Of a stretch of 49,568 nt of DNA, positions 5,409-25,051 are shown piece by piece. Position 1 is the stretch's first letter; the number at the start of each line of letters is the position of its first letter. Both the position numbers and the translations under genes were made by a program. The notes beneath the pieces are model-generated. The model was not told the DNA's origin, ran no database searches, and saw only the letters and a list, made by a program, of their open reading frames with translations. Source of the stretch: an uncultured Lachnospiraceae bacterium (lineage in GTDB: Bacteria > Bacillota > Clostridia > Christensenellales > UBA1242). The stretch spans positions 1-49,568 of the forward strand of contig CAYOEW010000002.1 in assembly GCA_964403245.1 (NCBI GenBank), given 5' to 3'.

Positions 5409-5471
5409 AGTTTTCTCCTTTGAGAAATTATAACTTAATTTTTTCAAAAAAACAAACAAAAAGACGTTTTT

Positions 5472-5948
5472 TCATGTTTTACACTTAATGTTTTGAAAAA
5501 TATTTCTTTCCAACCACACAAAATATTCCGAAAAGCAATAGAAAATCACAAAAAACAATCCGCATGAGAGTGTGGCAAGCAAATAGGTCAATTTTGTCAC
5601 TTTGACAAAAAATCCGAACACACCGACAATCAAAAAAGACGCCGACATCATCACAACGGCAAAAATCACAAATTTGATTATCTGCAAAATAATTTCCCGC
5701 CTGTTCCCCTGCGAAAGTTCTTTGCTCAAACCAAAAATCCCCCTCAAATCCAAATGCGGTGATTTTTTCGCGATAATTGGCGTGTATGCCAAATCAACAA
5801 AACAGAAAATCCCCGGCAAAAGAAAAAACAGGGAGAAAAAAGCGACCAAGAAAAGTTTGCAGATTTCGACATAGCAAATTTTGAGAAGAATTTTGACTTT
5901 CATGCGCAAATTATTGCAAAAAAAACACATTTTATGCAAAACTGCCAA
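5472..5948 (-). CDS. small polytopic membrane protein (start uncertain)
   Basis: The ORF has about 4 hydrophobic segments. None of the candidate starts (TTG 5948, internal ATGs) has a clear SD. Confidence 0.4.
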   Translation of the reverse strand: MAVLHKMCFFCNNLRMKVKILLKICYVEICKLFLVAFFSLFFLLPGIFCFVDLAYTPIIAKKSPHLDLRGIFGLSKELSQGNRREIILQIIKFVIFAVVMMSASFLIVGVFGFFVKVTKLTYLLATLSCGLFFVIFYCFSEYFVWLERNIFQNIKCKT

Positions 5949-5963: not shown

Positions 5964-7412
5964 TTATAAAATTGGTGAAAACAGTCTGAAAATTGCTTGA
6001 AGGAAACTTGTTAACCACTTCTTTTTGCGGAAATAGTTTGTGTCAACCAACTCGCAATTTTTCAGGTCGTCTGCAAAATATCCCTTATACTCTTCGGTTA
6101 GTTTTTCTGAATAGAAAATCACTGTATCTTCAAAATTGAGTCTGAAAGAGCGATTGTCGATGTTGCAAGTCCCAATTGAAAGTTTGTTGTCATCCACAAC
6201 AAGCGTTTTGCTGTGCAAAAAGCCGTTATAGAAAAACACATCTGCGCCCATTTCAACCATATCTTTCAAATATGAGAGTGAAACCCACCAAACTGTTCTG
6301 TGGTCAGGTTTGTTTGGAATCATGATTTTGACTTTTACACCACTTGAAATTGCGATGCGAAGTGCGGACATAAACGCTTCGTCAGGAATGAAATAAGGCG
6401 TTTGAATAAGCACTTCTTTTTTTGCACTTGTGATGAGTTTGATGTAGGCTTCTTTGATGTATTGCACATTGCTGTCCGGCCCAGAAACGAGCACCTGCAA
6501 ATATGTGTCGCCCATTTTGTCTGGTTTCGGGAAAAGCCCATCTTTGAGATATTTTGATGAAGGGGCGTTTTCTTTTTTGATATATCTCCAATCGTTCAAG
6601 AAAACGTTCTGCAAAACGAAAACTCCCGGCCCAACGATACGCACATGTGTGTCGCGCCAAGGAGAAAGTTTCTTCTTTTTCCCCATATGGTCGTCACGTA
6701 TGTTAATTCCGCCGGTGTAAGCAATTTTGCCGTCAATCACGACAATTTTTTTGTGATTTCGATAGTTAAGTTTCAAATTTATCATACGTATGTGAGCGAA
6801 AGGTGGGAAAAATTCAGCAACTTCCCCACCTGCTCTTTCAAGTTTTCGAAAAAATCTTCTGGGAGCGCCCAAGCACCCAATTGAATCATAGATAAACTTG
6901 ACTTTGACGCCTTGCTTTGCCTTTTTGATCAACACGTTCATCACTCTTTTTCCGACTTTGTCGTCATCAAAGATGTAATATTCCATGTTAATCGAATGTT
7001 TTGCATTTTCAAGGTCGCGAATCAATGCGTCAATTTTTTCTTCACCCCAACGAAAGATTTTGACGTCATTCGCAGGACAAAGGATGCTTCCATAGTTGTA
7101 ACAAAGTTTGACAGTTCCAACATCGTCTTTCAAAATATTGTCCACATCTTTGATTGAAACAAGATAGTCACGAATTGCCTTGTCATATTCCACTTCATAG
7201 AGTTTGTGGTTGGAAATCAGGCGTCTTACACGAATGGAAAGACCGCTTCCAAAGATGATGTAAAGGATATATCCGACATATGGCAAAAAGGTCGAAACTG
7301 TCAGCCAACTTATCACACTTGAAAGCTTTTTTCTTTCAAAGAAAATCATTGAAACCAAAAGCAAGAAGTTAAGGACAACATAGGTGACAAAGACCCAAAA
7401 CCAAGCATCCAT
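5964..7412 (-). CDS. cls: cardiolipin synthase
   Basis: Two HKD motifs (HKKIVVIDGKIAYTGGINI and HSKTLVVDDNKLSIGTCNID) and two N-terminal TM helices, about 480 aa. ATG 7412 overlaps the TGA of the upstream giant gene, with a GAGGTG RBS. Confidence 0.9.
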   Translation of the reverse strand: MDAWFWVFVTYVVLNFLLLVSMIFFERKKLSSVISWLTVSTFLPYVGYILYIIFGSGLSIRVRRLISNHKLYEVEYDKAIRDYLVSIKDVDNILKDDVGTVKLCYNYGSILCPANDVKIFRWGEEKIDALIRDLENAKHSINMEYYIFDDDKVGKRVMNVLIKKAKQGVKVKFIYDSIGCLGAPRRFFRKLERAGGEVAEFFPPFAHIRMINLKLNYRNHKKIVVIDGKIAYTGGINIRDDHMGKKKKLSPWRDTHVRIVGPGVFVLQNVFLNDWRYIKKENAPSSKYLKDGLFPKPDKMGDTYLQVLVSGPDSNVQYIKEAYIKLITSAKKEVLIQTPYFIPDEAFMSALRIAISSGVKVKIMIPNKPDHRTVWWVSLSYLKDMVEMGADVFFYNGFLHSKTLVVDDNKLSIGTCNIDNRSFRLNFEDTVIFYSEKLTEEYKGYFADDLKNCELVDTNYFRKKKWLTSFLQAIFRLFSPIL

Positions 7413-10400
7413 CAATTCACCTCTCTGCTTTCAGAAGTTGTTTCTCCTGCACCTTTAACAGTGATGTTGACAAGAATATATTTCATTTCAAAGTTTGTTT
7501 CAACAAAACTTTCGAGATAATATTCACAGTTATTTTCTTTTTCCGTGCTTGTTGCTTTTTCTGTTTTCCATTTTTCTTGTGTTGTGTCATACACATAATA
7601 TGTTTCTCCAATCACAAGGTCGCCATCATATTTAACAAGTTCTTTTGTGAAATATGTTATTCCAACTTCCTTTGTTTTGTCCGTTGTTTCAACGTAAGAA
7701 ACGGTGGTGCCATCCGAACCTGTTTTCTGTTTATAATAAACTTTTCGAACATTGGCAATAAGTGTTGTTGATTCGTCAATTGTGGTGGACGACAATGCAT
7801 AATGAAGTTCGCCATCATCCTTCAAAATTGCAAAATCAACTTTCAAATCACCTTCAAAACCTGAAATCTCTTTGATGTTGTCTTCAAGAGCAGAAAGTTC
7901 ATTTGTTAAACGATAGTAAGTCTTGCCTGCAACAACTTCTTTATCTTCTGTCTTGACATATTTGTCAACTTTTTCGTAATAAGTTTTGTCTTCTTTTAAT
8001 TCTTCGTCTGTTGTTACAGAATATGTGTCTGTTCCGTCATCCGTTGTCTTTTCATAGTAGGTCTTGCCTGAAACAAACGAAGTGTCTGCTGTTGCTTCAT
8101 ATCCCACGAATTCATAAAGGTCACTTAACAAATATTTGCCTTCTGTGACACTGCTTGCATCTGTGACAATGTTGCCAGAAGCAACTTCTGTGAGTGCTGG
8201 CAAGGTTTCGTCCACAATCAAATCCACAATCAAATCCACAATCTTGAATTTGAAATTGATGAGATAATATTGTCCACCAACAAAAACATAATATTGCAAT
8301 TTTTCATCTTTTTCAAGAGAAATTGCTGTCACTTCGCGAAGTGTGTTGCCGTTAAACTCATAATATCCAACAATTCCTTCTCCATTCACTTCTTCTTGGA
8401 CAAGCTTGTTGAGATCTGCAAGTTCAAAGTAAAGTGTGCTGGTTGTTGCATATGAAATGTTTTTTTCTTTACCTTGATGTACATAGAATGTAATGGTGTA
8501 TTTCTTATATGAAATTGTGCCGTCTGCATTATTTATTGTTGCAAAATATGTTCTGGTGATGATGCTTGTAAACGTTGCGTAATAGTAAGTCTTGCCTGCA
8601 ACAACTTCTTTATCTTCTGTCTTGACATATTTGTCAACTTTTTCGTAATAAGTTTTGTCTTCTTTTAATTCTTCGTCTGTTGTTACAGAATATGTGTCTG
8701 TTCCGTCATCCGTTGTCTTTTCATAGTAGGTCTTGCCTGAAACAAACGAAGTGTCTGCTGTTGCTTCATATTCCACAAATTCATAAAGGTCGCTTAACAA
8801 ATATTTGCCGTTTGTGAGTTCGTTTGCATCTGTGACAATGTTATCTTTTGTTGCTTCTGTGTATTGGGTGTAAACTGATGAGTTTCCGCCTTTCAAACCA
8901 TTCAAAACGCCGTTTGATTCAAGTTTGTTAAGCGTGATGTTGTCCGCCCCATTGTCTTTTGCAATAAGTTCTCGCGCCTTGTCGTCAAGAAGTTTTTCGT
9001 TTGAAACGAAGCCTGCCAACGCTTCTGTGTCTGTGTTCACAATATAATATGTCACTGTCCATTGTTCAACAGATGTGATTTCTCCATTTTCGCGGATAAT
9101 CACGAAGTATGTCACGTTTTCAGTATTTCCACCTTGCTTTGTTGTCTTGTATCCTGTTACTGATTTGTATGAGTCTTTTATGTTAAGGAATTCATATTCT
9201 CTGTCGTCGTCAGGCAAGTTTGACAAACTGAAGTTTGTGTTTGACTTAACTGTGGCTGACTTTTCGGCTTTTCCACGATATACATAATATGTGATGTTGT
9301 AGATTGTGAATGAGTCATCTCTTGACGCCAAATATTGTCTTGTTGTTTTTCCTAATGGCAAATCAGAAACTTTTCCACCTTCAATTTGAGTGATGTTTCC
9401 TTGAGAGTCAAGTTCATACCAATCATATTCCCCAATGTTACCATTAAGATTATATGATCCATTTTCGCCGGTTGTCGGAATCAAAACAGATTTATTTACA
9501 CGGGTTGAAGTGTCATACACCATCATCGTGCCTGTGACAATTTCTTGTGCAAAATTACCCTTTGAATCTCTTCCTGTGACAAGAATGCTGAATTCATATT
9601 GTCCGGCAGTTGAGAATGTCCAAGTTCCAATATTTCCGCGTGGGATGAGTGTGTCGTCAACCTTAATCATGTGATATGTGAAGTTGCTTTCGACAACATT
9701 TTTGTTGTCACCAACCAATTCTTCAAGGGAAACTGTTTCTCCAACCTTGCATGCAAAGGATGTAGAGATTTTGGTTACATTATTACCTTTATCAATTTCG
9801 TATATTGCTGATGAAACATTGTTTGTTTTAGCACTTGGCACGCTGTAATAATATCCATTTGGAATAACAAGAATATTATCCATTGTATGAGAGTTTTCGC
9901 TATCAATTTTATATTTGGTTGTCAACGTAATCGTTCCTGCATTTGGATAATATACTAGTTGATTGTTTTCGGTTTCAAAAGGAACAATAAATTCTTCATC
10001 TTTAACTTGTTCAAAATACAATCTGAATTGAGCAAGTTTAAGTTTTTTGTTTGCTTCTTGATATAATCCATCATCACCTGACACGCGTTGATATACGTTC
10101 ACAGTGATTGTGTGTGATTCAAGAACAAAATCTTCACTTGTCGTGATTGCTCCGCGTTCGTCAATAAATGCTGAACCAAGACCACCAGAGATTGTGGTGT
10201 TGATTTCAAATTCATATTTGAATGGATCATCAAAGAATCCTACTGGACTTCCAACAGACTTGCTATCAGCAGTATATAGCACTGTCTTAATTTCTTTTGC
10301 CCACTGATTAAGCGTTGTGACATAATATGTGTTTGTGCCGTTTGAAACTTTGAGATAGTCTTCAACTTTGACAACATAATTGCCTTGCTCGTCAATATTC

Positions 10401-13400
10401 GAATGTTCTGCACTCTTCGCGTTTGGATATACCCTGAACTCTTGCGCGTGCTGATAAGTTCTGTTATTCGCTTTAAACAAGAAGAAGAGCGTTTCTGTCT
10501 TATAGTTTGAATTGTTCAATTCCGCAATGTTTTCAATGTTGAGAGTGATGTTTTCTTTATAATTTTCTATACTGCCAGATGCATCACCTTCGTGTCTGAT
10601 ATATTTTTCTTCATTCAGTTTATTAAATTCATCTTCACTGTTTATCAGTATAAATTCATTATCTTTCAAATAATAAGTTTTGTTTTCAACAAAGGAAGTT
10701 GCTGAATTATAACTCACATCTGTTTTTAATTCGCTACCATTATATTCAAATTCAACATTTCCTGTTTTTTCAACAATTGAAATATAGAATTTCTCATTTC
10801 CCAAATTATTTTCCAAACCGTCGATGCTTGCTGAAATTCCAACATATTCGGTGATTGCATATGTGCGGTTGTTTGTTTTGGTGATTCTTGTCATTTCATC
10901 AATATTTTTTTCTGTGATTTCTTCGTTTGAAACAACAAATGTCACTGATGCACCTGAGTCAAGTTTGACTTCCAAAGTGTCGTTGAGAACCGAACTGATT
11001 GATTTTTCTGTACCAACATTTTCTCCCAACATAATATTTTGTCCATCTTCAATGTTTGTCGATTTAAACATTCCTTCAGACGATGCCGCGCGAACAAGGG
11101 TCACTGTGTAATACAGATATGCTTCGTTTGTTTTGCTTTCATCATCTTGAGTCATATCCTTGAGAGTTATTCTCATCTTCACATTTGATAAGGTGTTGCC
11201 TGTGCCATAGTAAATTCCATTGATTTTCGGAACCACAAAGCCGTGATCATCTCCTGCTGCATTTTGTCCGGCAACAATTTCTACTCCGCCATCTTTTTCC
11301 TTCAAGAAGTTGAAGGAGTCGCTTGTGAAGAGATCTGCGCCATCGCTGGATTTTTCAGGAAGTTCTGTTTGATATGTAGTATCAGAATATTCGTCTCCTG
11401 TTCCGCCAATCCAAGTGTTATCTTGGAGATAATAGTCAATTGCGGTGACTTTCAGGTTATACAACTGCGATGTCAAAGCCGAACCAGTGTCAAAACTTGT
11501 TTCGGTTTCTTTGTTATATGCATATGCATCAATTCCTTTTAACAAAACACTGACAAAACCATCACCAAGTCCACTAGTTTCAGGAGTGGAATAAGTCGAA
11601 TTGACATTATAACTTTGTTTTATGTCCACTTCAATCTTATTAGTTTTTTCATCTTTATAAATTGCTTTAACCGAATAAATCGGTGTAATACCATCACTAC
11701 CTTTGGTACATTTCAGCCAAAGTGTAACAGTTTTAATGTTATAGTATTTAAATTTGTCAACTGAGCCTCCGCTGATCGACTTCCAGCCGTCATTCTTGTC
11801 TTTTTCATTATACAAGCTATAAGAAGTATCATTCGCAGATGCTTCTCTCTGCCATTCAGGTGTTGTGCCAGCATATGCTTCATTGTCTCCGCCATATTCT
11901 GTTGTAACTCTGAATATTACACTATAATTTGCTTTTCCGGCCTCAGTTGTCACTTGGATGGAATCTAACTTATATTTAGTTGTTGTTCCTGATTTTCCAA
12001 TTTCATAATCAACTGGTTTGTAAACCGTATAAAGATCAGAATTGTCATCCGAAGATGGTGCTTGCTTGGTTGTTTCAACCTCTTGATATCTCACTCCGAC
12101 ACCGACATAATTGCCTTCTTCGATTGTTGTTGATGAGATAGATTCAACTTCTGGATTGAGGTCTGCGACGAGTTTGAAGTAGAATTTAATCTTGTAGCCA
12201 AATGTATTTTCCCCTTCAATCACAAAGTATCTTTCGCCCAAATTGAGTTTTGGAAGTTTAAGTGAGAGATATTTATATTGTTCGTCATCGGAATCATTTG
12301 TAGTAGGATTGCCTTTATAAGTGTTACTATTTTCGCCTACCTGTTTCCATGAGTTTGAACCACTGTCATTGTTGTATGGAGTCAATGTGTTATTAAGATC
12401 GCCGAAGTCGTTATATCCGCTTGGGGTGTTGATTGTGTAGGTGTACGTGAACTTGTTTGCGCTGTTGATTGATGTTCCACCATACATAAATGCGTTGATA
12501 ACTCCAACATCAAATCCGGTTGCTTCTGCGTTATTTGTCCAAAGGTTGAATGATGTTTCACCTTTGTTAATCACATAATAAGAATTGTTGTTGCTTGTGA
12601 TTGTGCGGTGTTCATCTTTGTCAAATTCGGTGTTGCCCGGATTGAACGAACTTGTTGCGTTATGACTGCTCTTAAACTGAACTGTTGTTGACGATCCCGG
12701 AACAACCTTGAACATGATGTTATATTCTTTTACAATTTCAACTTTTGCGACTTTGACTGTGTAAACAATCTTCATCATGACGTAGTTTCCGTCGTTACTG
12801 CACCCTTGGGCTGTGATTGCATAGTCCAAAGTTTTGCCAGTGTCAACTTCCACTCCATTTTTAGTGATTTTTTGGTCACCGGAAAGAGTGATATAGTTGT
12901 TGTTTTGATCTCCGCCAGTCACATAACCATCTCCGTTTATTTCCTGACTTGCTCTTGGGTTCAAACCGGTGGAATATATTATTTCATTTCCACTTGCATC
13001 AACAAATTTGTCTTTTTTGAGTTTGTTGTGGATTTCATATGCAAGAGTTCCTTCTTTAATTGGCGCGCCATCAAATCCATAGATAAACAATTCAAAATTG
13101 CCAGAATTTTGAGCCATAAGTTGTTTTGTATAATTTTCTCCTGTGCGGGTGTTTTTGATTCCAAAAATGTTGTTATATGACCCAAACAAACTGTTTGAAG
13201 TGCCGGCAACAATTTCTTGAATATGCATTTCATCTACACTTTCTGTTGCGTTTTCAACTCCAAATTCAACATCAATATAGAAGTTGTATTTTGCGCTTGT
13301 TTTGATTGTCGTGTCACCAACCTTAACTTGAACGCCCAAACTTACTTTCTCTTCTGTATACCAAGCGTCAACATCATAAGCATTTGCTTTTTCGGTTTTT

Positions 13401-16400
13401 TCTTCTGTTATTGTTACATTCTTATTTGTTGCTATGCTTAATATGTTGTCGACATTGAATTCAATATAATTGCCTGAGTTATCTTTGAAATAGTAAATTT
13501 TTTTACTATCATATTTTTTATCATTAGTTTCGTTATAAATATAAGCTTTTTCATAGTAAGTCTTGCCTTCAGCAAATGAAGTGTCTGTTGTTTGTTGATA
13601 ACTCTCACTTCTTTCATAATAGCTCTTGCCTTCTTCAAATGAAGTGATTTCTTTGTATTCTCCACTTTCAGTCTTTTCATAGTAAGTCTTGCCTTCTTCA
13701 AATGAAGTGTCTGTTGTTACTTTATATGTGTAAATCAGTTCATAGTAAGTTTCACCTTCTTCAAACGAAGTGTCGGTTGTTACTTCGTATTCTCCACTCT
13801 CACTTCTTTCATACAATTCACCCATTGGAGCATAAGTGATTTGTGAAGATTGATGTTTCAAAAGATCGCTTCCAGTGTCAATGTAATATTCTTTATTATC
13901 AGTACATGTGACTTCATAAGTCCTGGTTTGAGTTCTCCATAACGTGCTTATTGAGTAAAATTTAAACGTAAATTTAACTTTTGTCCCGGCCGGAGTCCCT
14001 TCCTTAAATTGATATGCAAATCTTTTTTTGACTGTTGAATCTTTTGTTGCTGTAATCAACTCAAGTGTTGTGTCATCAGTAAGTTTGATTGTTGAGCCAT
14101 CCTTATATTTCGCAACAATTCTTGCTGTGAGTTTTGGAACTGATTCATAATATTCTTCATCGTTAATTGGTGAAATTCCGTCTTTTGCGTTGTTTTCGTT
14201 TTGATAAGTTCCGTCATATAAATAACCTGTCAAACTTTCACCCAATTCAACATTGATTTCTTTTCCAAGTTCAGTTACTTTCAATTCTTTGACTTTTGCA
14301 GTGTTTTCTTTCAAGAATCTTACATAATATGTTGCGCCTTTTGTTGCTTTTCCTTTACCGCTGAACGTTGCGCTCATGATACGGTCAGATTCAAACAGTG
14401 TCTGTGTGGACATCGTTGCCAAATCTTCTGCATAGATTGTTTCTTGGTTGTTGTCATAGTTTGGAGAATGTGTTTCAACCGAAATCACACTTCCATTAAC
14501 CAAAATCACTTCATATTCTGCAGAAACTTCGTTGCAGGTGAGAGTAAACACAACTCTTCCGTTCTTGCTTGTGTCCGAAAGAATAAATCTGATGTTTAAA
14601 TTTGGCATACTTTTTGACGTTGCAAGAGTTTCTTTTGAATATACTTTCCCAGATGTATCTTGAATTGTCGCATTTTCAATTTCTGTGATTTCAATCTTAT
14701 ATTCTCTGCCAAAATCAATACCTTCAAGCCCTTCAACTTCTTTAACAACAAATCTATTATCTGTCGCAAAAGTTGCTATTGAATCAAAGAAGTTTTCAAA
14801 ATAATCGCTTCGGCATGCACCATCACTTTCAACTTGCACTTCAATATATTCCGCAGTCGAAGAATTTTCTCCGTCTGGTTTTGGATAGTTTGGTGTGACT
14901 GTAACGTTTTTGTAAACATAATAAGTAAAGTTGAATGAGAATCCATAAATACATTCACCTTCAAACCAATAAACCATATTGATTGTTTCTGTCACGCCCG
15001 TTCCGTCAACTGCAACATTTTGTGGTGTAATTGTCAACGAATACTGCGACTCAACATCTTTAAATCTTATATCACCATGGAAATTAACCTTATCGTATTC
15101 CACATAATATACTTTTGTTTCGGTTGTTCCATTTTCTTTTGTTTCTATTGAGTTAAATTTTACATATTTTGTTCCACCGATTGTTTCTGTTTCAAAACCT
15201 TCTTTTGTAGTTCCATCAGATATTTCTCCAACTTTATTTAAAATTGGTTGGTTATTTTTATCAATCGTCTTCTCAAAATATTCTGTTCCGGCAGGAATGA
15301 TGATACGTTGTTCAAAACCAAATTTGTCTGCTATCACATCCAATCCAACCGAGTCAGAACCTTCTCCGACTTTGAATTCGACATTTCCATATCTCTTGTG
15401 GCTGTCAGTGATTGTTTTGGATGTCAAAGTCACACTCTTCTTCACAGTGATTTCAAAATCAAAACTGAAAGTTTCATTGTCTGAATCTGTGATTGTGGCT
15501 GTGAATTTGAATGTCACATCTTGGGTCAAGTGAGCAAATGTAACTTTGTTGTTTTCGTTGTCAATATTCACCAATTTGTCTGCTGTCAATTCACCTGCGT
15601 TGTCCAAAGTTATGCTCTCTGTTGTCACTTTCAATGAGAGAGTGTAACTTCCGTTATTCAACAAATCTGTGATTGAACTGAAAATTCCATATTCTTCAGA
15701 GTTAACATTTTCCTTTGCTTTGATGAAGTCATATGTCTTTCCACCCACAAATCCGGAGTTGAAAGTCCATGCATAGTGTCCTTTGACAGTCAAATCAAGT
15801 CTGAACGCAACTTTGTCATAATATTCTTTTTTGTTTTCAACCTTCAAAAGTGGATAGAATCCAATTTCTGCATTGAAGTTTTCTGTCACATTGTTTTTTG
15901 GACAAATATGCAAGCGGTTTTGTTCGTCAAGATAGAAATATTCTCTCTCAAGATTATCTGACAAAACATAATATGTCTTTGTTTGAGTTGTTTCTTCTCC
16001 ATCTTCGCCTGTTGTCGTCACTTCAAGGTCAAACTTCACATATGTCTTTTTGTCGATTGTTTCTGTTTCAAATGAGAGCACATCTTTTTCAAGAGTTCCC
16101 ACTGCTGTTGAAGAAATTGTTTCACCGTCTTTTTCAAAATACTCTGTTCCAGCAGAAATCTGTTGATATTTTTTCAAGAAGTTTGAAAGGTCTGCGTCTG
16201 ATGAAACATATGCTCTGATTCCAGCAACTGGAGAGTCTGTTCCGTTGTTTGTAATTTGAAGAGTTGGAGTAAGAATAATCTCTCCGCTTCCGGCACTGAT
16301 TTCGGTTGTGTAGGTGTTTCCGTCTGCTGTAAGGGCTTTTGTATCAGCCGTTTCTCCACTTCCTGTTGTTTTGCTCAAAGTGTGTTTGTAGGTCTTTCCT

Positions 16401-19400
16401 TGTCCAAACTTGAGTGTGTAGGTTTGTTCACTTCCGACAACCTTGTCGCCTTGTGTTTGTTCTTGTCCAGCTCCTTGAAGAACAAGGCTTCTCAAAATTC
16501 TTTCAACTGTGATGTCAATTTGAGAATTTGAAGTAAGCATTGTGATTATGAGTTTGCTTCCATCAAATTCATAGGTAAAGTAAGCATCAAAGTCTGTTGT
16601 GACAACGCCGTCAATCATAACTTCTTTGATTCTGTATTCAGATGTAAACGAAATTGCATTGGCAAGCAATTCGCCAACCTTTTCCACCTTTCCAAAACGT
16701 GTTTTGCCGTCATTTGCTGTGTTTTGGAATTGTTCTGCAAAGTCAATTACATATTTTTCGCCGTCATAATATTTGCTTTCAACATCCAAATATTCCCCGT
16801 CTTCAGAGAATGGATATGAAACATCTTCAAGTGTGGCATCCGCTTTAACCTTGATGCGATAGAACCATGAGAATGTGTAGCCATTTTGTGAGAATGTCAA
16901 CTTCAATCCAATGTATGCGTCTTCACCGCCTGCTGTAAGGCTGTAAATCTTCAATTGGTCTGTTCCGACAATTTCTCCATATTCTTCGCCTTCAACGATT
17001 GAAAGTGAATATGTTGCGCCTTCCTGATTTTCAAGGCCAACCAAACTGCCTCTGAATCCGAAGCCAGAAGCATGCGTTGTGGATTTTTCTGTGTCATGAA
17101 CGACATTATATGTCTTTCCTGCCTCCAAAGTTTCAAAAACTTCGTTGTCAACAAGCCCTTGATATTCTCCAGTCAAGACATCAAGCGAAACCTTTTCAAA
17201 TGTGTTGTAGGTGTTGTCATTGTTTGAATAGTAAACATAATTTTCACCAATTCTTGTGATGTAAACTGGAATGGACACTATCACTGTAAGGGTGTTTTCA
17301 TCTTTTTCAACATCCATTTTTATTCGAATAGCATTTTCATCATCGTCAATCATGAAATTGTCAATGCTTGTTACTGAAACTCCCTTCTCACCATTTTTGC
17401 TGAAATATCTTCCGCTGAAGCTGTCAACAAGATAGTCCGAACTGTAAGTCTTTCCACTGAACAACACAACCTTTTCTTTTCCGTTGCTGGAAATTGATGT
17501 TGCATATTCTTCGGTGCCGACAATTTTGAAAATTTCGGTGATATTTTTGCCAAATCCAATTTGGAAGTCAAGTATCAAATGAACTTCCGAATCTGAATCA
17601 ATTTTTACGATTGTTCCATCATAAAGCAATTTAACCGCATCAATTATCAAATTATTATTCGATTTGCCTTCTTTGACAGAGAATTGCTGTGTCACATATT
17701 CTTCTGCACCAATTTGAAGAGTGGCTGTTGTCACCCCAAATTTGCCGTCCGAATCGAGCGTTATATAGGCTTTATCAGATATATTTTCAAATGTTGGAGA
17801 TGGAATTTCTTTCAAATCCAGATTATCAAATTTACATTCATTTTTAAAGAAACTCACAAGCGAAAACGCATCATAGAATGTTTCAAGCTCGGAATCCGTG
17901 TTTGCCAAAGTGAGTTTTGGGTTTTCCTTTTGTCTGATGATGATGTCTGGATGAACAAGGAATGTCAAAGTTTGACTTGCAGCGAAATTTGTCTGAACTC
18001 CATAATAAATTGTCACCTTGATTGTTGTGAGTTGGAACACAGATTCAGAGTCAACATATAAACACAATTTATTTTCTGATTTTTCCAATATAACACGTTC
18101 GTCATTATTGTCAACTTTAATAAGTTTAGCTTTTATTTCTTCAACACCAGAACCTTTTACTGCCGCGAACCATGAATATGAATTGTTGACGATGATTGAG
18201 TTTCCGCTTTCATCTGTTTTTAAATTGCCATTTTCATCTTTGTCTGTCGTTTTTGTTCCCTTTGCGGAAAGTTTCAAATAGTTGTCAAGGTCATATTTTT
18301 CACCGGCAACAATTGAAAGTTTTGTGCCGTCTTTTGTAAGATAATCAGAGTGGTCGGTGTAATAACTTTCAAACGTTGAATTGATTCCAACATCCGCCAA
18401 GAATTCCAATTCAAGAGAAATTCTGTAAAGACTCTTGTCTTTGTCCATCACAAGAAAACCAATGGTGGTGTCTTTTCCGAATGGATTGATGATTTTGATT
18501 TTTTCGATTTCTTCCGTCAAGTAATCATCAATTGATTTTGAATTCGTTTGTGTTTCTTCTTGTCTGTCAGTCCCATCATCGTTGAATCCAATCATCAACA
18601 TGATATCTTTCTTGGTCTGTAAGTCCCAACTTGAAAAACTGCTCTCATCCAAGAAGAATATTGATTCTGACGCTTCTTCTGTGTTTGATCCTGTGTAAAC
18701 TTTCACAAGATTTGACAAAGTCAAAACATCCTTGGTTGTTACATATTTTGACACCTTCACATTTGTTATACTTTCGCTTTCTTCGTATGAAGGCGTTCCA
18801 GCAATGTCTGTAATATCATATTTAACCTTTGAAATTCCTTCACTCTCAACACTGAATGTAATCTTCTTTTTGGAAGCTTCATCCAAGACAAAGTTGCCGG
18901 CATTGTCAACAACCTCAATCATCAAACAAGTTTCCTTTGATGATGTTGTTGAAGAGAATCCAATGATTGCGTTTCCGTCTGTGTTCAAGTTTATGATCTT
19001 GTTATTTCCAGTCCCCGGGTCTTCCACCAATTTTATGCTGTAAATTCCATCTTTTGTTTCGATTTTCTTTCCATATTGGTCGGTTATTTCCGTTTCAAGA
19101 TATTTGTTGAGTTTTTCAAGTATTCCTTCAAGGTCTTCTCCTGCAATATCTTCACTTCCCCACTTGATTGAAGTTTCGTTTGACTTGATATTTACGATGA
19201 CATTTGCAATTTTTCCATCTTCTTTGAAATTGTTGTTATTTTCAAATGCTGATGAAATTGAAACTGGCTGTTGATAGTAAATGAAGAAATGATCATTGTT
19301 GCTCTTGTCTTTTATGATTTGAGTATAATCACTTTTGCCGTCATTAAATCTTAATTGCAAACGAACATACTTCCCTTCGTCAGTTCCATTTGTGGCCGCT

Positions 19401-21565
19401 TTGAAGAGATCTTCTTTGATTGAAAGAGAGCCTGTGTAAGACAACTTGTCTGTGTCGTTATCTTTTACAAGACTTTCAATGGAAACATATTGATCCGCAG
19501 AAACATTTCCGTTTCTGTCAACACACTCAACTTTGATTTTTCCATCCGCATACGCAGTGTCAACTTTTTGCGCGTCACTTTCAAAATCAGAACTTTCAAG
19601 AACAAGTTTGAATGTGATGACTGACTTTTTCAATCCACTGTCATCACGATTGATTGCTGGAACATAGATTTGTTCATCTTTCGTTACACTTGCGTCTTCT
19701 TCAATTTCAAAAGAAGGGGTCATGTTGTAAATTGAAAGGTTGCTTCGAACAATAACTTCTTTTGCGTTTGACATACCAACAAAATTGTATTTATTGTCTT
19801 TATCAAGATATGGTTTGTTGTCAGCATTCGTTTTCACAATCGCAGCAACAACATAAACCTTTCCTTCAAAACTCTCAAAGGCTGTCAAAATTGAACCTTC
19901 AAGTTCATAAAGGGTGTATTGTTTTTCTGAAATAGTATAATTAACCCCACCTTTGCAATCAAACACTTCGGTCATAACAAAACCATTAGGAACATCTGTA
20001 TCACAATATAAGAAATATTTCACAGTTTTGTAAACTTTGTCTTCCGAAATTTCACCAACCAATTCAGACAAATCGATGTGAGCAGGAGTTTTAACTATGT
20101 TTGAATTTCCATCTTCTTTGAAATTGATTTCAAGTTCAATTTCATCTTCGCTTTTCCATCCAATTTCTCCTTCGTCTGTTTTTGCTGAAAATTTGAAATT
20201 GAAAGACTTTTCTTCGTCAAATTTGAAGAAGTTCACCATTTTTCCATCATTGTTCTCAAAGAAGAAGTTCAATTTAACTTCAAAGTTTTCGCCTTCTGAT
20301 GCGGAAAAATCCCAATAATAATAATTTGGATTTGTTGGGGTTGTGTTTGGAAGAAGATAATATATTACACTTGCATTTTCGAAATAATTTTTTGTGGCAA
20401 CATAATTTTCTCTTGTTATTGTTGTTTCTTCACCGCTCTTATCAACCTTCATCAAACTTCCGCCGGAAATTTCCAGACCTTTAACCAATTTGATTCCAAT
20501 GTTTGAATAAAGCGTGCTGAGTTCTTGCGCTTTGCTGTCTTTGATTGACACACCCAAAGCCTTGTCACCACCAGACTTTGCTGTCACACGAATTTTTTTG
20601 TCAAAATTTCCTTCAAAAGTTTCGTTTTGAGAACTGAAATTTACACTGCTGATTTCAGCATTCAAAACTTTGATTTGAATGTCACAAGACACACAGTGTG
20701 TTGGGTTTTCTCTGAAATATGTACGAATAAGGTCTTTAAGATCTGACGCACCGCTGTTCTGCTTCAAGAATTGCGATTGATAGTATGCATTCGCGAAGGT
20801 GTATGCTGTGATTGTTGCAGTGTTGTCTCCTGTTATTTGTTCAGCATAAAATTTGCCCGTTTCTTCGTCATAACGAATGAAACCTTCTGCTGTTGCACTG
20901 TAAACAACAATTTTCTTGTCTGCGCTTGTGTCAGAAAACATATATTGACTTTTTTCTGGCACAAATGTTGTTTCAAGACCAAATTCCGAACCAACAACAA
21001 CTTCTTGAACAGTTCCCGTTTGTGTTGAGCCAGCGATTTTTGTTTTGATTTCATATACTGGAACGTCAACAAAAATGTTTACACTCTTTGCTTCAAGAAG
21101 TTTGTTTTCTGATTTTGCAGTGAGAAGGGAGTTTCCACCAACAATGATATTATCAAAAATTTCTTGACTGTATTCTGATTCAATTTGCACTGAAAATGCT
21201 TTGTTGAGTTTGACTTGAAGTGGAACAGTGATGACTCCGTCTGTGACATACCATTTTTCGTCTTTCTTGATTTTTCTTCCATTTGCAAGAGAAAGTTCAA
21301 CATTTGTTGCTGTGACATCTTCGGTCGTGGTCGAAATTGTCATCTTGAAATCAGAAGCAACTTCATATCTTCCAGTGTCAGCATTATAACTTCCAAGTCC
21401 TTCGTCAATTTCTGTTGAAAAACTCATGTCTTCCGGATTTACTTTTTTCTCATCAAACCCGCCAGACACATAAATTGAAAGCACAGTTGCACCTGCAACT
21501 GCAACCAGTCCAAATATAACAAGCATAATTGCTTTCCACAGACTTAAAGCTCCTCTTTTTCTCAT
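7412..21565 (-). CDS. giant (4717 aa) N-terminally membrane-anchored, probably surface-exposed protein of unknown family
   Basis: Uninterrupted 14,154-nt ORF with GGGAG 7 nt before the ATG. The N-terminus MRKRGALSLWKAIMLVIFGLVAVAGATVLSIYV is a basic stretch plus a ~22-aa hydrophobic anchor. The rest is hydrophilic, rich in T/E/K/N/Y/S/V and nearly Cys-free. It has internal protein and DNA repeats. Confidence 0.85.
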   Translation of the reverse strand: MRKRGALSLWKAIMLVIFGLVAVAGATVLSIYVSGGFDEKKVNPEDMSFSTEIDEGLGSYNADTGRYEVASDFKMTISTTTEDVTATNVELSLANGRKIKKDEKWYVTDGVITVPLQVKLNKAFSVQIESEYSQEIFDNIIVGGNSLLTAKSENKLLEAKSVNIFVDVPVYEIKTKIAGSTQTGTVQEVVVGSEFGLETTFVPEKSQYMFSDTSADKKIVVYSATAEGFIRYDEETGKFYAEQITGDNTATITAYTFANAYYQSQFLKQNSGASDLKDLIRTYFRENPTHCVSCDIQIKVLNAEISSVNFSSQNETFEGNFDKKIRVTAKSGGDKALGVSIKDSKAQELSTLYSNIGIKLVKGLEISGGSLMKVDKSGEETTITRENYVATKNYFENASVIYYLLPNTTPTNPNYYYWDFSASEGENFEVKLNFFFENNDGKMVNFFKFDEEKSFNFKFSAKTDEGEIGWKSEDEIELEINFKEDGNSNIVKTPAHIDLSELVGEISEDKVYKTVKYFLYCDTDVPNGFVMTEVFDCKGGVNYTISEKQYTLYELEGSILTAFESFEGKVYVVAAIVKTNADNKPYLDKDNKYNFVGMSNAKEVIVRSNLSIYNMTPSFEIEEDASVTKDEQIYVPAINRDDSGLKKSVITFKLVLESSDFESDAQKVDTAYADGKIKVECVDRNGNVSADQYVSIESLVKDNDTDKLSYTGSLSIKEDLFKAATNGTDEGKYVRLQLRFNDGKSDYTQIIKDKSNNDHFFIYYQQPVSISSAFENNNNFKEDGKIANVIVNIKSNETSIKWGSEDIAGEDLEGILEKLNKYLETEITDQYGKKIETKDGIYSIKLVEDPGTGNNKIINLNTDGNAIIGFSSTTSSKETCLMIEVVDNAGNFVLDEASKKKITFSVESEGISKVKYDITDIAGTPSYEESESITNVKVSKYVTTKDVLTLSNLVKVYTGSNTEEASESIFFLDESSFSSWDLQTKKDIMLMIGFNDDGTDRQEETQTNSKSIDDYLTEEIEKIKIINPFGKDTTIGFLVMDKDKSLYRISLELEFLADVGINSTFESYYTDHSDYLTKDGTKLSIVAGEKYDLDNYLKLSAKGTKTTDKDENGNLKTDESGNSIIVNNSYSWFAAVKGSGVEEIKAKLIKVDNNDERVILEKSENKLCLYVDSESVFQLTTIKVTIYYGVQTNFAASQTLTFLVHPDIIIRQKENPKLTLANTDSELETFYDAFSLVSFFKNECKFDNLDLKEIPSPTFENISDKAYITLDSDGKFGVTTATLQIGAEEYVTQQFSVKEGKSNNNLIIDAVKLLYDGTIVKIDSDSEVHLILDFQIGFGKNITEIFKIVGTEEYATSISSNGKEKVVLFSGKTYSSDYLVDSFSGRYFSKNGEKGVSVTSIDNFMIDDDENAIRIKMDVEKDENTLTVIVSIPVYITRIGENYVYYSNNDNTYNTFEKVSLDVLTGEYQGLVDNEVFETLEAGKTYNVVHDTEKSTTHASGFGFRGSLVGLENQEGATYSLSIVEGEEYGEIVGTDQLKIYSLTAGGEDAYIGLKLTFSQNGYTFSWFYRIKVKADATLEDVSYPFSEDGEYLDVESKYYDGEKYVIDFAEQFQNTANDGKTRFGKVEKVGELLANAISFTSEYRIKEVMIDGVVTTDFDAYFTYEFDGSKLIITMLTSNSQIDITVERILRSLVLQGAGQEQTQGDKVVGSEQTYTLKFGQGKTYKHTLSKTTGSGETADTKALTADGNTYTTEISAGSGEIILTPTLQITNNGTDSPVAGIRAYVSSDADLSNFLKKYQQISAGTEYFEKDGETISSTAVGTLEKDVLSFETETIDKKTYVKFDLEVTTTGEDGEETTQTKTYYVLSDNLEREYFYLDEQNRLHICPKNNVTENFNAEIGFYPLLKVENKKEYYDKVAFRLDLTVKGHYAWTFNSGFVGGKTYDFIKAKENVNSEEYGIFSSITDLLNNGSYTLSLKVTTESITLDNAGELTADKLVNIDNENNKVTFAHLTQDVTFKFTATITDSDNETFSFDFEITVKKSVTLTSKTITDSHKRYGNVEFKVGEGSDSVGLDVIADKFGFEQRIIIPAGTEYFEKTIDKNNQPILNKVGEISDGTTKEGFETETIGGTKYVKFNSIETKENGTTETKVYYVEYDKVNFHGDIRFKDVESQYSLTITPQNVAVDGTGVTETINMVYWFEGECIYGFSFNFTYYVYKNVTVTPNYPKPDGENSSTAEYIEVQVESDGACRSDYFENFFDSIATFATDNRFVVKEVEGLEGIDFGREYKIEITEIENATIQDTSGKVYSKETLATSKSMPNLNIRFILSDTSKNGRVVFTLTCNEVSAEYEVILVNGSVISVETHSPNYDNNQETIYAEDLATMSTQTLFESDRIMSATFSGKGKATKGATYYVRFLKENTAKVKELKVTELGKEINVELGESLTGYLYDGTYQNENNAKDGISPINDEEYYESVPKLTARIVAKYKDGSTIKLTDDTTLELITATKDSTVKKRFAYQFKEGTPAGTKVKFTFKFYSISTLWRTQTRTYEVTCTDNKEYYIDTGSDLLKHQSSQITYAPMGELYERSESGEYEVTTDTSFEEGETYYELIYTYKVTTDTSFEEGKTYYEKTESGEYKEITSFEEGKSYYERSESYQQTTDTSFAEGKTYYEKAYIYNETNDKKYDSKKIYYFKDNSGNYIEFNVDNILSIATNKNVTITEEKTEKANAYDVDAWYTEEKVSLGVQVKVGDTTIKTSAKYNFYIDVEFGVENATESVDEMHIQEIVAGTSNSLFGSYNNIFGIKNTRTGENYTKQLMAQNSGNFELFIYGFDGAPIKEGTLAYEIHNKLKKDKFVDASGNEIIYSTGLNPRASQEINGDGYVTGGDQNNNYITLSGDQKITKNGVEVDTGKTLDYAITAQGCSNDGNYVMMKIVYTVKVAKVEIVKEYNIMFKVVPGSSTTVQFKSSHNATSSFNPGNTEFDKDEHRTITSNNNSYYVINKGETSFNLWTNNAEATGFDVGVINAFMYGGTSINSANKFTYTYTINTPSGYNDFGDLNNTLTPYNNDSGSNSWKQVGENSNTYKGNPTTNDSDDEQYKYLSLKLPKLNLGERYFVIEGENTFGYKIKFYFKLVADLNPEVESISSTTIEEGNYVGVGVRYQEVETTKQAPSSDDNSDLYTVYKPVDYEIGKSGTTTKYKLDSIQVTTEAGKANYSVIFRVTTEYGGDNEAYAGTTPEWQREASANDTSYSLYNEKDKNDGWKSISGGSVDKFKYYNIKTVTLWLKCTKGSDGITPIYSVKAIYKDEKTNKIEVDIKQSYNVNSTYSTPETSGLGDGFVSVLLKGIDAYAYNKETETSFDTGSALTSQLYNLKVTAIDYYLQDNTWIGGTGDEYSDTTYQTELPEKSSDGADLFTSDSFNFLKEKDGGVEIVAGQNAAGDDHGFVVPKINGIYYGTGNTLSNVKMRITLKDMTQDDESKTNEAYLYYTVTLVRAASSEGMFKSTNIEDGQNIMLGENVGTEKSISSVLNDTLEVKLDSGASVTFVVSNEEITEKNIDEMTRITKTNNRTYAITEYVGISASIDGLENNLGNEKFYISIVEKTGNVEFEYNGSELKTDVSYNSATSFVENKTYYLKDNEFILINSEDEFNKLNEEKYIRHEGDASGSIENYKENITLNIENIAELNNSNYKTETLFFLFKANNRTYQHAQEFRVYPNAKSAEHSNIDEQGNYVVKVEDYLKVSNGTNTYYVTTLNQWAKEIKTVLYTADSKSVGSPVGFFDDPFKYEFEINTTISGGLGSAFIDERGAITTSEDFVLESHTITVNVYQRVSGDDGLYQEANKKLKLAQFRLYFEQVKDEEFIVPFETENNQLVYYPNAGTITLTTKYKIDSENSHTMDNILVIPNGYYYSVPSAKTNNVSSAIYEIDKGNNVTKISTSFACKVGETVSLEELVGDNKNVVESNFTYHMIKVDDTLIPRGNIGTWTFSTAGQYEFSILVTGRDSKGNFAQEIVTGTMMVYDTSTRVNKSVLIPTTGENGSYNLNGNIGEYDWYELDSQGNITQIEGGKVSDLPLGKTTRQYLASRDDSFTIYNITYYVYRGKAEKSATVKSNTNFSLSNLPDDDREYEFLNIKDSYKSVTGYKTTKQGGNTENVTYFVIIRENGEITSVEQWTVTYYIVNTDTEALAGFVSNEKLLDDKARELIAKDNGADNITLNKLESNGVLNGLKGGNSSVYTQYTEATKDNIVTDANELTNGKYLLSDLYEFVEYEATADTSFVSGKTYYEKTTDDGTDTYSVTTDEELKEDKTYYEKVDKYVKTEDKEVVAGKTYYYATFTSIITRTYFATINNADGTISYKKYTITFYVHQGKEKNISYATTSTLYFELADLNKLVQEEVNGEGIVGYYEFNGNTLREVTAISLEKDEKLQYYVFVGGQYYLINFKFKIVDLIVDLIVDETLPALTEVASGNIVTDASSVTEGKYLLSDLYEFVGYEATADTSFVSGKTYYEKTTDDGTDTYSVTTDEELKEDKTYYEKVDKYVKTEDKEVVAGKTYYRLTNELSALEDNIKEISGFEGDLKVDFAILKDDGELHYALSSTTIDESTTLIANVRKVYYKQKTGSDGTTVSYVETTDKTKEVGITYFTKELVKYDGDLVIGETYYVYDTTQEKWKTEKATSTEKENNCEYYLESFVETNFEMKYILVNITVKGAGETTSESREVN
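7913..8172 (-). repeat. copy A of an intragenic ~260-bp direct repeat (first 190 bp identical to copy B)
   Basis: By direct comparison, 7913-8102 is identical to 8582-8771. The next ~70 bp carry about 11 mismatches. The offset is 669 bp (223 codons). Confidence 0.9.
8211..8243 (-). repeat. 12-bp in-frame tandem repeat, about 2.75 copies (encodes VDLIVDLIVD)
   Basis: TCCACAATCAAA at 8211-8222 and 8223-8234, then TCCACAATC at 8235-8243. Confidence 0.9.
8582..8842 (-). repeat. copy B of the intragenic ~260-bp direct repeat
   Basis: See copy A. Encodes NIVTDA..GKYLLSDLYEFV.YEATADTSFVSGKTYYEKTTDDGTDTYSVTTDEELKEDKTYYEKVDKYVKTEDKEVVAGKTYY. Confidence 0.9.
13546..13815 (-). repeat. degenerate tandem array encoding (T)TDTSF.EGKTYYE units
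   Basis: Four DNA units of the form TCATAGTAAGTCTTGCCTTCTTCAAATGAAGTGTCTGTTGT with variants. The protein reads TTDTSFEEGETYYEL..TTDTSFEEGKTYYEK..ITSFEEGKSYYER..TTDTSFAEGKTYYEK. Confidence 0.85.
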
Positions 21566-21681
21566 TACAAAACTCCCATTTCCAAAAATCTCAAATCAAC
21601 ACAAACAAAAACAGGTAAAAAATAAAAATTTAATAAACAAAAATATGTCCAAAATTATTGTTTGCTTAATTTAACAAAATA

Positions 21682-21710
21682 ATTATACATTTTTTTGCCT
21701 TCAAGTGCAA
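21682..21710 (-). promoter_or_regulatory. candidate promoter of the giant gene
   Basis: Minus strand: TTGCAC, 17 nt (contains A7), TATAAT, about 110 nt upstream of the ATG. The -35 is weak. Confidence 0.35.
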
Positions 21711-21813
21711 GCGTTTCAGCCGAAAAGTGTAGATTTTATATATAAAATATATAATTGCCGTCCACCAGAGCGAAAATCAGTCACTTTCTGCGCGTTACAC
21801 AACTTTCAAAAGG

Positions 21814-21842: not shown

Positions 21843-21848
21843 CAACAT

Positions 21849-25013: not shown

Positions 25014-25051
25014 ATTTTTGCTTGAAAAAGTTTAAAAGAAGAAGGAATTTT

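Follow-up and report, generated by a model that had tools for sequence, protein, structure and literature searches.

What does a bacterium from a lineage of strongly reduced genomes gain from a single gene of more than 14 kb? This question is raised by contig CAYOEW010000002.1 (NCBI GenBank assembly GCA_964403245.1), which stems from an uncultured bacterium of the family UBA1242 (order Christensenellales). The window analysed here is the entire contig of 49,568 bp; it is of metagenome type and has a guanine-plus-cytosine (GC) content of 35 %. On its minus strand, positions 7412..21565 form one giant open reading frame (ORF) with an ATG start, which encodes 4,717 amino acids (aa) plus the stop codon and is identical to collection protein P0002. 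An earlier note, written from the sequence alone, had pictured the product as an N-terminally anchored protein with no recognisable domain architecture and had proposed a cell-surface fibre or attachment organelle. We report that the protein belongs to a family of giants whose N-terminal part is confidently modelled as a chain of immunoglobulin (Ig)-like beta-sandwich domains, and we lean towards the view that it forms a surface stalk tethered to the membrane.

An intact gene and a family of giants

Reading through 7412..21565 on the minus strand reveals no internal stop, and the single uninterrupted frame described in the earlier note can be upheld. A Shine-Dalgarno-like GGGAG is read directly from the sequence at 21573..21577 (minus strand), 8 nt 5' of the ATG at 21565. 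Further upstream, a promoter-like site at 21682..21710 (minus strand) combines a -35 element TTGCAC (21710-21705), a 17-nt spacer and a -10 element TATAAT (21687-21682) that is directly preceded by TG; the promoter is putative and is proposed from this consensus match. The protein is rich in T (10.4 %), E (9.1 %), K (8.3 %), S (8.0 %), V (7.2 %), N (7.0 %) and Y (6.6 %) and nearly free of Cys (17 residues, 0.36 %), as had been stated, and its ectodomain carries a net charge of -284. The location on the minus strand near the origin was likewise seen correctly: dnaA is found about 15.5 kb to the right of the gene, which is co-oriented with replication, since the cumulative GC skew has its minimum at about 37-39 kb of the window. 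The same minimum places the replication origin within the window. Here recF (35950-37029, minus strand) is located 5' of and divergent from dnaA (37071-38465, plus strand), and not downstream of dnaN.

An exhaustive search with a hidden Markov model (HMM) of the N-terminal 1,100 residues yielded 139 cluster representatives (clusters defined at 50 % identity, with the window protein present as P0002), with members from NCBI, ENA, JGI and Logan assemblies. Giants make up 71 of these, with a length of 3,250-5,670 aa and a median of 4,075; all 71 align from their own first ~25 residues, and nearly all of the 139 matched proteins align from their own N-terminus. A word-indexed search, for which aa 1-1200 or an alignment of 4 sequences served as query, missed most of the family and returned one relative, as opposed to 139 representatives (the query itself included) in the exhaustive search. 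This relative (P0001) is a truncated protein in a metagenome-assembled genome (MAG) of Candidatus Caccovivens, with 45 % identity and a syntenic neighbourhood. Compositionally biased giants of this kind apparently overload the word prefilter with its 8,000 candidates.

Two further family members came from a scan of GTDB species genomes: L004, a human-gut MAG, contains an intact ORF of 3,977 aa, and L003 a more distant copy with a minimum length of 2,935 aa. Both are colinear with the window protein over all the length present. The 3,977-aa orthologue is sequence-identical in two separate contig records, namely the GTDB MAG contig L004 and the metagenome contig L005, and close variants of it occur in two further strains of that species. 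A metagenome scan with alignment A2 retrieved three more strains of the L004 species only. Across the giant gene, the ratio of non-synonymous to synonymous substitution rates (dN/dS) is 0.25-0.31 in three strains of one species. The gene is genuine, intact and under purifying selection.

This survey of homologues and their neighbourhoods, with cls (the cardiolipin synthase gene) as a conserved neighbour, delineates a giant family. Its members combine a basic N-terminus, a single transmembrane (TM) segment and a juxtamembrane motif with an N-module of ~1,100 aa and a colinear all-beta core of 3.3-5.7 thousand residues, and cls follows downstream. The window protein possesses all of these features. 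Although identity within the family falls to about 24 %, its members keep the same domain order.

Modelled fold of the N-terminal module

AlphaFold2 was applied to aa 38-1100 with a 33-row family alignment (A10). The resulting model has a mean predicted local distance difference test score (pLDDT) of 87.8, with 1,027 of 1,063 residues at or above 70, and a predicted template modelling score (pTM) of 0.54; an attempt from a 2-sequence alignment reached a pLDDT of 36 and was discarded. The modelled segment is 45 % strand and 12 % helix, and its strands form ~9-10 sandwich-sized groups of ~110 residues with few inserted helices. We interpret this confident model as ~9-10 consecutive Ig-like beta-sandwich domains.

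Foldseek matches to the model at E<=1e-3 number 252 in the PDB and 205 among the viral proteins of BFVD, and the top matches are almost all tandem Ig-like or beta-sandwich chains. The best PDB match is a gp210-type nuclear-pore chain; the others at the top comprise the S-layer arrays of Bacillus anthracis, Sap (9g93_A, E 3.9e-13; 6qx4_B, 2.9e-11) and EA1 (8opr_A, 8.1e-11), all at 9-10 % identity and TMq 0.09-0.13, as well as protocadherins, desmosomal cadherins, alpha-2-macroglobulin/CD109/complement (with several macroglobulins within the top 50 PDB matches), the GhpA neck, contactins, the PrgB Ig domains (8beg) and Ig-decorated phage tail proteins. Because global TM-scores are low (0.07-0.18, at identities of 6-11 %), these matches fix the fold class of aa 38-1100 and not its descent. 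The absence of a recognisable domain architecture, as claimed in the earlier note, is therefore true for the sequence and not for the fold. Structure prediction and Foldseek, run on this segment, recover a recognisable Ig-like fold class and hence not a protein without precedent. As Big/cadherin/FN3-type adhesins and S-layer arrays share this fold class, the giant protein is a variant of a well-known kind.

For the residues beyond the model, a crude secondary-structure predictor was trained on the aa 38-1100 model and the family alignment (block-cross-validated Q3 0.68). It assigns ~50 % strand and <3 % helix to them, with an equal strand density. Extrapolated from the model, the whole ectodomain may consist of ~40 Ig-like domains.

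Probable membrane anchor and sorting signals

The N-terminus with its hydrophobic segment (aa 1-37; 21455..21565, minus strand) starts with MRKRG and continues into a hydrophobic stretch that we read as a signal anchor. It is the only hydrophobic segment of the protein (Kyte-Doolittle windows covering aa 4-37) and its run length is ~22-27 residues, so that the basic stretch and ~22-residue segment noted earlier are confirmed by the scan. A family-conserved juxtamembrane motif, Y-L-x-G-G-F-x-E-K-x-V-x-P, follows and takes the form Y-x-x-G-G-F-x-E-K-x-V-x-P in the window protein. Basic N-terminus, one hydrophobic helix and juxtamembrane motif are common to 71 of 71 giants, with W10, G25, L29 and P44 conserved in at least 85 % of them.

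Other modes of attachment leave no trace in the motifs that were scanned. The window protein has no LPXTG-like motif (LPXT[GAS]) anywhere and no second hydrophobic segment, in line with the earlier statement that a C-terminal anchor is lacking. Among the 71 giants, none carries LPXTG within the last 60 residues, a lipobox within the first 60 residues, a CxEQ thioester motif or a collagen-like run; the RTX-type motif GGxGxD is found in two of the 71 and is absent from the window protein. On these grounds, identities as a sortase-anchored (MSCRAMM/LPXTG) protein, a lipoprotein, a collagen-like protein or an RTX protein of a type I secretion system (T1SS) were rejected. The broader claim that the usual marks of Gram-positive adhesins are missing stands for LPXTG, SLH and choline-binding signatures; Ig-like periodicity, which it had also denied, is present in the predicted structure only. 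The host organism is a monoderm, with penicillin-binding protein (PBP) and amidase genes in the window, and the giant protein is probably tethered to its membrane by the N-terminal segment.

Sequence searches and regional anatomy

Sequence libraries are silent on the giant family. For the window protein, no Pfam family was found at E<=1, nothing above noise in NCBIfam, no match in PHROGs, none by tblastn in phage genomes and none among PDB sequences by phmmer at E<=10. The 3,834-position family profile also had no match to PDB sequences at E<=10, and in 11 diverse relatives (~46,000 residues) there was no real Pfam match at E<=0.01, catalytic families included. Pfam likewise detected no SLH or CWB2 wall-binding domain in the window protein (E<=1) or in the 11 relatives (E<=0.01). 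The family is thus unannotated in Pfam, NCBIfam, PHROGs and the PDB sequences, which agrees with the earlier view that no domains are recognisable by sequence, and a routine membership in a characterised adhesin family found no match by sequence. It is also without mention in two detailed treatments of UBA1242 and in a survey of giant genes (bioRxiv 10.1101/2023.11.21.568195).

The window protein was further compared with itself. Tile BLAST revealed no self-similarity in aa 40-3900, and hhalign on 200-residue tiles with 71-sequence profiles gave no internal repeat above 70 % probability in the same range; profile-profile comparison with 4-sequence profiles gave no significant repeat either. 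The best internal match, between aa ~1550-1690 and 2195-2340, is weak (68 % probability). Both approaches support the earlier description of a mostly non-repetitive protein. Near the C-terminus, a module of ~100 aa recurs (92-96 % probability by hhalign), and the window's lineage-specific arrays match as well.

Three regions can be distinguished along the gene, all on the minus strand. The conserved N-module (aa 38-1100; 18266..21454) displays the highest family conservation. The family core (aa 1101-4235; 8861..18265) is colinear, consists almost entirely of unique sequence and is predicted to be beta-rich; outside insertions its family occupancy is 0.5-0.9, and aromatic, Gly and Pro columns are conserved throughout. 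Lineage-specific insertion hot spots in the family alignment lie at ~aa 1101-1200, 1801-1900, 2101-2200, 2501-2700, 3201-3300 and 4201-end. One lineage-specific insertion, with a family occupancy of 0.05-0.10, is an array of ~5 copies of the 21-aa motif ..Y-x-V-T-T-D-T-S-F-x-E-G-K-T-Y-Y-E-K.. (aa 2585-2700; 13466..13813), which Tandem Repeats Finder (TRF) detects in the DNA as a 63-nt period repeated 3.8 times at 13549-13785. This main array is situated at 55-57 % of the length, and the claim that short-motif arrays are confined to the C-terminal third has to be corrected; further arrays occupy aa 4257-4331 and 4489-4554. The period and the G-K-x-Y-Y core of the 21-aa GKTYYEK arrays resemble choline-binding repeats (~20 aa, GW..WYY..G). 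A choline-binding (CW_binding_1) identity was rejected, as neither the CW_binding nor the Choline_bind models of Pfam match the window protein at E<=1 and the arrays are lineage-specific inserts.

In the third region (aa 4236-4717), the last ~270 aa are a recent tandem duplication (669 bp, a unit of ~223 aa) of the family's normal C-terminal end. The first unit (aa 4236-4445; 8231..8860) ends in the usual C-terminal motif of the family, ..QYYVFVGGQYYLINFKFKIV, and the second (aa 4459-4717; 7415..8191), its tandem duplicate, ends in ..EMKYILVNITVKG... Their 96-aa core is 88 % identical, and at the DNA level a repeat of 261 nt is 96 % identical (7913-8173 / 8582-8842). Owing to this duplication, the family end motif (..YYV.VG..YYLI..F..) occurs twice in the window protein. 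The duplication looks like the product of recent slipped or unequal recombination and possibly marks a site of length variation, and the copy number of the ~223-aa unit could be misjudged by short-read assembly. A 12-nt micro-repeat (2.8 copies, 8211-8243), which encodes DLIVDLIVD, is positioned exactly at the duplication junction.

Evolution and host lineage

Between genomes, the N-module of the giant protein is 24-47 % identical, whereas the same genome pairs show 79-95 % for ABC-F, 66-88 % for PBP, 58-88 % for glycyl-tRNA synthetase (GlyRS) and 58-70 % for the cls product; the giant protein evolves far faster than its neighbours. Within species, one decile of ~430 residues reaches 7.6-10.6 % amino-acid diversity and the other deciles do not exceed 3.4 %. 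The position of this hypervariable decile differs between species, and indels are found within species, too. A gradient of variability from the N- to the C-terminus was considered and dropped, because two further species have their hot spots elsewhere, which leaves patchy hypervariability only. Synonymous divergence (dS) along the gene varies ~30-fold in one strain pair (0.007-0.19), which suggests recombination. Such fast and patchy divergence is what diversifying pressure on an exposed surface molecule would be expected to produce.

The closest relative of the window is Candidatus Caccovivens, with whose MAG it shares gene order and to whose counterparts its ABC-F and PBP are 95 % and 88 % identical. 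This taxon corresponds to GTDB genus UBA11517 of family UBA1242, order Christensenellales, and its type genome has 1.1 Mb and 34 % GC (PMC8035907). Published UBA1242 relatives have genomes of 0.75-1.1 Mb; if the genome studied here is of similar size, the giant gene makes up 1.3-1.9 % of it. UBA1242 genomes are mostly <1 Mb, lack pathways for amino acids, nucleotides and lipids as well as standard uptake transporters, have an incomplete glycolysis and are reported to lack an F-type ATPase, and their bearers have been proposed to be obligate symbionts or parasites (PMC12306168). These bacteria are widespread and uncultured in the animal and human gut and are negatively associated with chicken growth (PMC12306168; PMC13155120).

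Genomic neighbourhood

The gene cls (5964..7415, minus strand) encodes a cardiolipin synthase of 483 aa with 2 N-terminal TM segments, the Pfam domains PLDc_2/PLDc/PLDc_N and a TIGR04265 equivalog match of 436 bits (cut-off 290). Its start overlaps the stop of the giant ORF by 4 nt. In all six loci with a visible downstream gene (the window, L004, L008, L010, L012 and L013) cls lies directly 3' of the giant gene, with gaps of -4 to +38 nt, and this pairing holds even in the tier of ~24 % identity, where the genes beyond cls differ. Overlap or near-abutment indicates that the two genes are co-transcribed, and the operon-like unit with cardiolipin synthase suggested in the earlier note is well supported by these loci.

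Two small ORFs follow on the same strand. The first (5472..5948, minus strand), 15 nt after cls, encodes a predicted multi-pass membrane protein of 158 aa without a Pfam or NCBIfam match and has weak homologues at the equivalent position in L010 and L013. The second (4860..5459, minus strand) encodes a soluble protein of 199 aa without a family match, has homologues of 52-59 % identity at the equivalent position in the same two loci and is the last gene of the co-directional run. In closer relatives, ORFs of both types follow cls as they do in the window. Next comes a 153-aa ORF on the opposite strand (4402-4863, plus strand), which is 54 % identical to its homologue in L010 (27694-28155) and inverted relative to its neighbours in comparison with that locus. 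As a terminator-like hairpin (minus strand, 4689-4670) is located within this ORF, there is no clean 3' boundary for the giant-cls operon.

Upstream of the giant gene, a divergent lysine-rich ORF (21705-22505, plus strand; ~230-266 aa) without a family match overlaps the start of the ABC-F gene by 4 nt. It is kept at this position in L001, L004, L010, L011 and L013, with 35-59 % identity. A perfect TTGACA-17-TATAAT lies at 21814-21842 inside the ORF as listed, and its true start is therefore probably further downstream. The ABC-F translation ATPase, upstream of and divergent from the giant gene, is widely syntenic, as is the lysine-rich ORF. Between ABC-F and glyS, the GC content drops to 0.29 (23000-26000), as compared with ~0.36 elsewhere; in this trough, two ORFs (154 and 168 aa) overlap on opposite strands, and no Rfam match was obtained. 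No Rfam element was found in the window as a whole, and no T-box upstream of the glycine-tRNA ligase at the gathering threshold. An unannotated membrane protein of 975 aa is encoded between mraW and recF (32947-35874, minus strand); near its N-terminus are four hydrophobic segments, matched by CvpA/Colicin_V below the threshold, and ~800 residues without a Pfam or NCBIfam match follow.

A proposed tethered surface fibre and its alternatives

How might these features be brought together? We consider it somewhat more probable than an even bet that the giant protein is a Sec-exported, N-terminally tethered and wall-spanning stalk of Ig-like domains, which presents its inserts and C-terminal modules to a ligand. 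The surface fibre or attachment structure suggested in the earlier note is thereby kept as the reading that best fits the Ig-like model, the N-terminal anchor and the surface-like evolution. In such a scheme, Sec would export the protein and the uncleaved N-terminal helix would hold it in the membrane; the conserved N-terminal module would cross the peptidoglycan layer, and the ~40 sandwich domains would stick out as a stalk, whose length in the extended state would be around 100 nm or greater. A ligand on a partner cell, a host surface or a particle could then be reached by the variable inserts together with the C-terminal modules, and the tether could hold the cell to a metabolite source, in a lineage of 0.75-1.1 Mb genomes without most biosynthesis. 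Since co-transcription with cls is indicated, we speculate that cardiolipin might aid the export or positioning of so long a polypeptide. The fold class of aa 38-1100 is the firm part of this scheme, to which we infer membrane retention, fibre extension and binding.

Several points weigh against the tethered stalk. Within the hydrophobic segment there is a small-x-small site (A-V-A|G, aa 22-24) at which the anchor might be cleaved. The low TM-scores speak for a fold class only, and the pTM of 0.54 may mean that the domains pack more compactly than in a straight fibre. The model spans 23 % of the protein, and the other 77 % could hold non-Ig, even enzymatic, domains. Furthermore, the entire oriC-proximal region is syntenic in the lineage, so that the adjacency of cls, which may partly reflect general conservation of gene order, is weak evidence when taken alone. 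The proposed function is read from sequence and model, the gene is presumed to be expressed, and the analysis points to no binding domain, ligand or partner.

A more far-reaching version of the tethered stalk, which we regard as rather doubtful, would make the giant family the attachment organelle of an obligately partner-dependent (episymbiotic or parasitic) UBA1242 life. In this version, a core gene would supply a ~40-domain fibre by which the cell is bound to one particular partner, either a bacterium or the host. The fibre would be functionally coupled to cardiolipin synthase and to the two small conserved proteins, and these would make or provide a specialised membrane site of export and exchange.

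It is also conceivable, if on the unlikely side, that many N-terminally anchored copies pack laterally via their beta-sandwiches and form an S-layer-like coat or sheath, that is, an outermost layer instead of a discrete fibre. Such a coat would suit the presence of Sap (9g93, 6qx4) and EA1 (8opr) among the best Foldseek matches, the strongly acidic character of the protein and a pTM that suggests defined inter-domain packing; the gene is moreover a fixed part of the core genome and its non-repetitive order of domains is conserved, as would be the case for a structural part and not for a contingency adhesin. However, the Sap and EA1 matches, with 9-10 % identity and TM 0.09-0.18, are no better than those to cadherins or macroglobulins, and Pfam finds no SLH, CWB2 or other wall-binding module. 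The hypervariable patches and the fast divergence fit an exposed interaction surface at least equally well. Finally, the giants (4,000-5,700 aa) lie far above the size of known S-layer subunits, all of which, to our knowledge, are far smaller.

The candidate cleavage site at aa 22-24 leads to a further and clearly improbable alternative, in which the signal peptide is removed and a giant exoprotein is released, either free or non-covalently held, and serves scavenging, matrix formation or attack on other cells. Relatives have a similar G-V-A|G, no second anchor is present, most of the protein is outside the structure model, and the giants of predatory Omnitrophota carry degradative domains that were found only by structure prediction (bioRxiv 10.1101/2023.11.21.568195). 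Yet the hydrophobic run has the length of a TM helix and extends beyond the candidate site. The residues that follow (G25, L29, Y-x-x-G-G-F and P44) are among the most conserved of the family, and this speaks for their retention in the mature protein. No catalytic family emerged from the 11 members or from the family profile against PDB sequences.

Very unlikely, in our estimation, is a role as surface adhesin of an apparatus related to type IV secretion systems (T4SS) or conjugation, where the giant protein would act as a functional analogue of PrgB and work with a nearby VirD4-like protein in cell-cell transfer. This idea derives from a VirD4-like coupling protein gene (2302-4335, plus strand; NCBIfam conju_CD1115 equivalog, 269.6 bits at a cut-off of 250) that lies 3 kb from the operon end and has a 79 % identical copy at the equivalent relative position in L010 (28317-30302), together with the Ig-like domains of PrgB among the Foldseek matches. 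The PrgB match is, however, no better than those to dozens of Ig arrays, and the LPXTG anchor of PrgB is absent here. No VirB4, VirB6, relaxase or other T4SS gene is visible in the window, and the coupling protein is missing within 10 kb downstream in L008 and within 6 kb in L012 and L013, three loci that nonetheless retain the giant-cls pair. In this reduced genome, the VirD4-like gene seems to encode an 'orphan' coupling ATPase that belongs to the syntenic chromosome, and it does not look like a mobile element.

That the ORF results from misassembly or from a fused gene call, or is a pseudogene in decay, as a metagenome-type contig and the 261-nt direct repeat near the 3' end (96 % identical and able to mislead short-read assembly) might suggest, is effectively refuted by the 71 independent giant representatives of shared colinear architecture (3.3-5.7 thousand residues; NCBI, ENA, JGI and Logan), by the orthologue that is identical in L004 and L005 with close variants in two more strains, and by the dN/dS, with doubt left only on the copy number of the last ~223-aa unit.

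The giant gene is the obvious candidate for the structure by which UBA1242 cells touch a partner or host: it takes up 1.3-1.9 % of such a genome and keeps its place and domain order lineage-wide, yet evolves several times faster than its neighbours. The protein could serve as an antigen for labelling and sorting cells, as bait for a partner, and its gene as a lineage marker. At a more general level, the family is a clean example of an Ig-fold array nearly without sequence repetition, which was missed by family databases and revealed only by structure prediction with a family alignment.

Comparison with known systems

Adhesins such as SiiE, LapA/LapF, MpIBP and the Bap/Esp type resemble the window protein in being multi-thousand-residue, acidic, nearly Cys-free, all-beta and extracellular, and SiiE/LapA-type adhesins likewise line up ~100-aa sandwich domains in a row that presumably reaches out and binds surfaces. 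They differ in that they consist of many near-identical tandem repeats, detected by Pfam and variable in number, whereas the core domains of the window protein have no significant similarity to one another and a fixed order. SiiE/LapA-type adhesins are moreover held by a C-terminal T1SS signal, an outer-membrane plug or LPXTG; in the window protein, the N-terminal helix is the sole candidate anchor. The class of repetitive BIg/cadherin/FN3/Rib adhesins (SiiE, LapA, MpIBP, Bap, alpha-C/Rib) was rejected, as there is no Pfam match, no self-similarity by BLAST in aa 40-3900 and none above 70 % probability by hhalign. The Ebh/FIVAR-GA class, with alpha-helical modules and a C-terminal membrane anchor, was set aside as well, given a model of 45 % strand and 12 % helix, the lack of a Pfam match and an N-terminal hydrophobic segment.

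Among the best structural matches, Sap and EA1 of B. anthracis share with the window protein a chain of sequence-dissimilar beta-sandwiches on a Gram-positive surface. They have ~800 aa, bind wall polysaccharide through N-terminal SLH domains and form a two-dimensional lattice; the window protein is 5-6 times longer and has a membrane helix and no SLH domain. Of the features of SLH-anchored S-layer proteins it thus shows the array of sandwiches, at the level of fold class, without SLH or CWB2, and this class was rejected. Similarly, gp210 and the alpha-2-macroglobulins are long arrays of all-different beta-sandwich domains held on a membrane by a single helix or a lipid, although gp210 is eukaryotic and anchored C-terminally. 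The matches to them, at 7-9 % identity and TM 0.08-0.14, are no evidence of common descent, and an identity as alpha-2-macroglobulin or thioester protein was excluded, with CxEQ and lipobox each found in 0 of 71 giants.

Giants of the Omnitrophota and other ultra-small bacteria provide a parallel in genome context: they, too, are large genes in small, possibly partner-dependent genomes, their domains are seen only by structure prediction, and attachment roles have been proposed for them, as here. Omnitrophota giants are reported to exceed 10,000 aa and to reach 85,804 aa, with numerous transmembrane regions and mostly divergent SecA DEAD-helicase domains (bioRxiv 10.1101/2023.11.21.568195). 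An identity of that type was rejected for the window protein, which has 4,717 aa, one hydrophobic segment and no SecA domain.

The closest functional analogue that we can name, compared by description only, might be Gli349 of Mycoplasma mobile. In this protein of 3,183 aa, a transmembrane segment at the N-terminus is followed by a long middle part of ~100-residue units and then by a distal region for binding at the C-terminus (PMC6376172). It shares with the window protein the layout of an N-terminal TM segment followed by ~100-aa units, which is an analogy of layout only. It also comes from a host-dependent member of the Bacillota/Mycoplasmatota with a reduced genome and has no similarity to known binding proteins. 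Unlike the window protein, Gli349 has 18 recognisable sequence repeats and a 'foot' that contains leucine-rich repeats (LRR), and its working partners are Gli521, Gli123 and an internal F1-ATPase-like motor, of which no counterparts, including a Gli521-sized neighbour gene, are seen in the 49.6-kb window.

Altogether, these comparisons place the giant protein in a kind that is already known, the giant bacterial surface proteins of Ig-fold domains. Unusual within this kind are core domains that lack significant sequence similarity and nonetheless keep a conserved order, the anchor at the N-terminus, and a core syntenic gene, always paired with cls, in a lineage with genomes under ~1 Mb.

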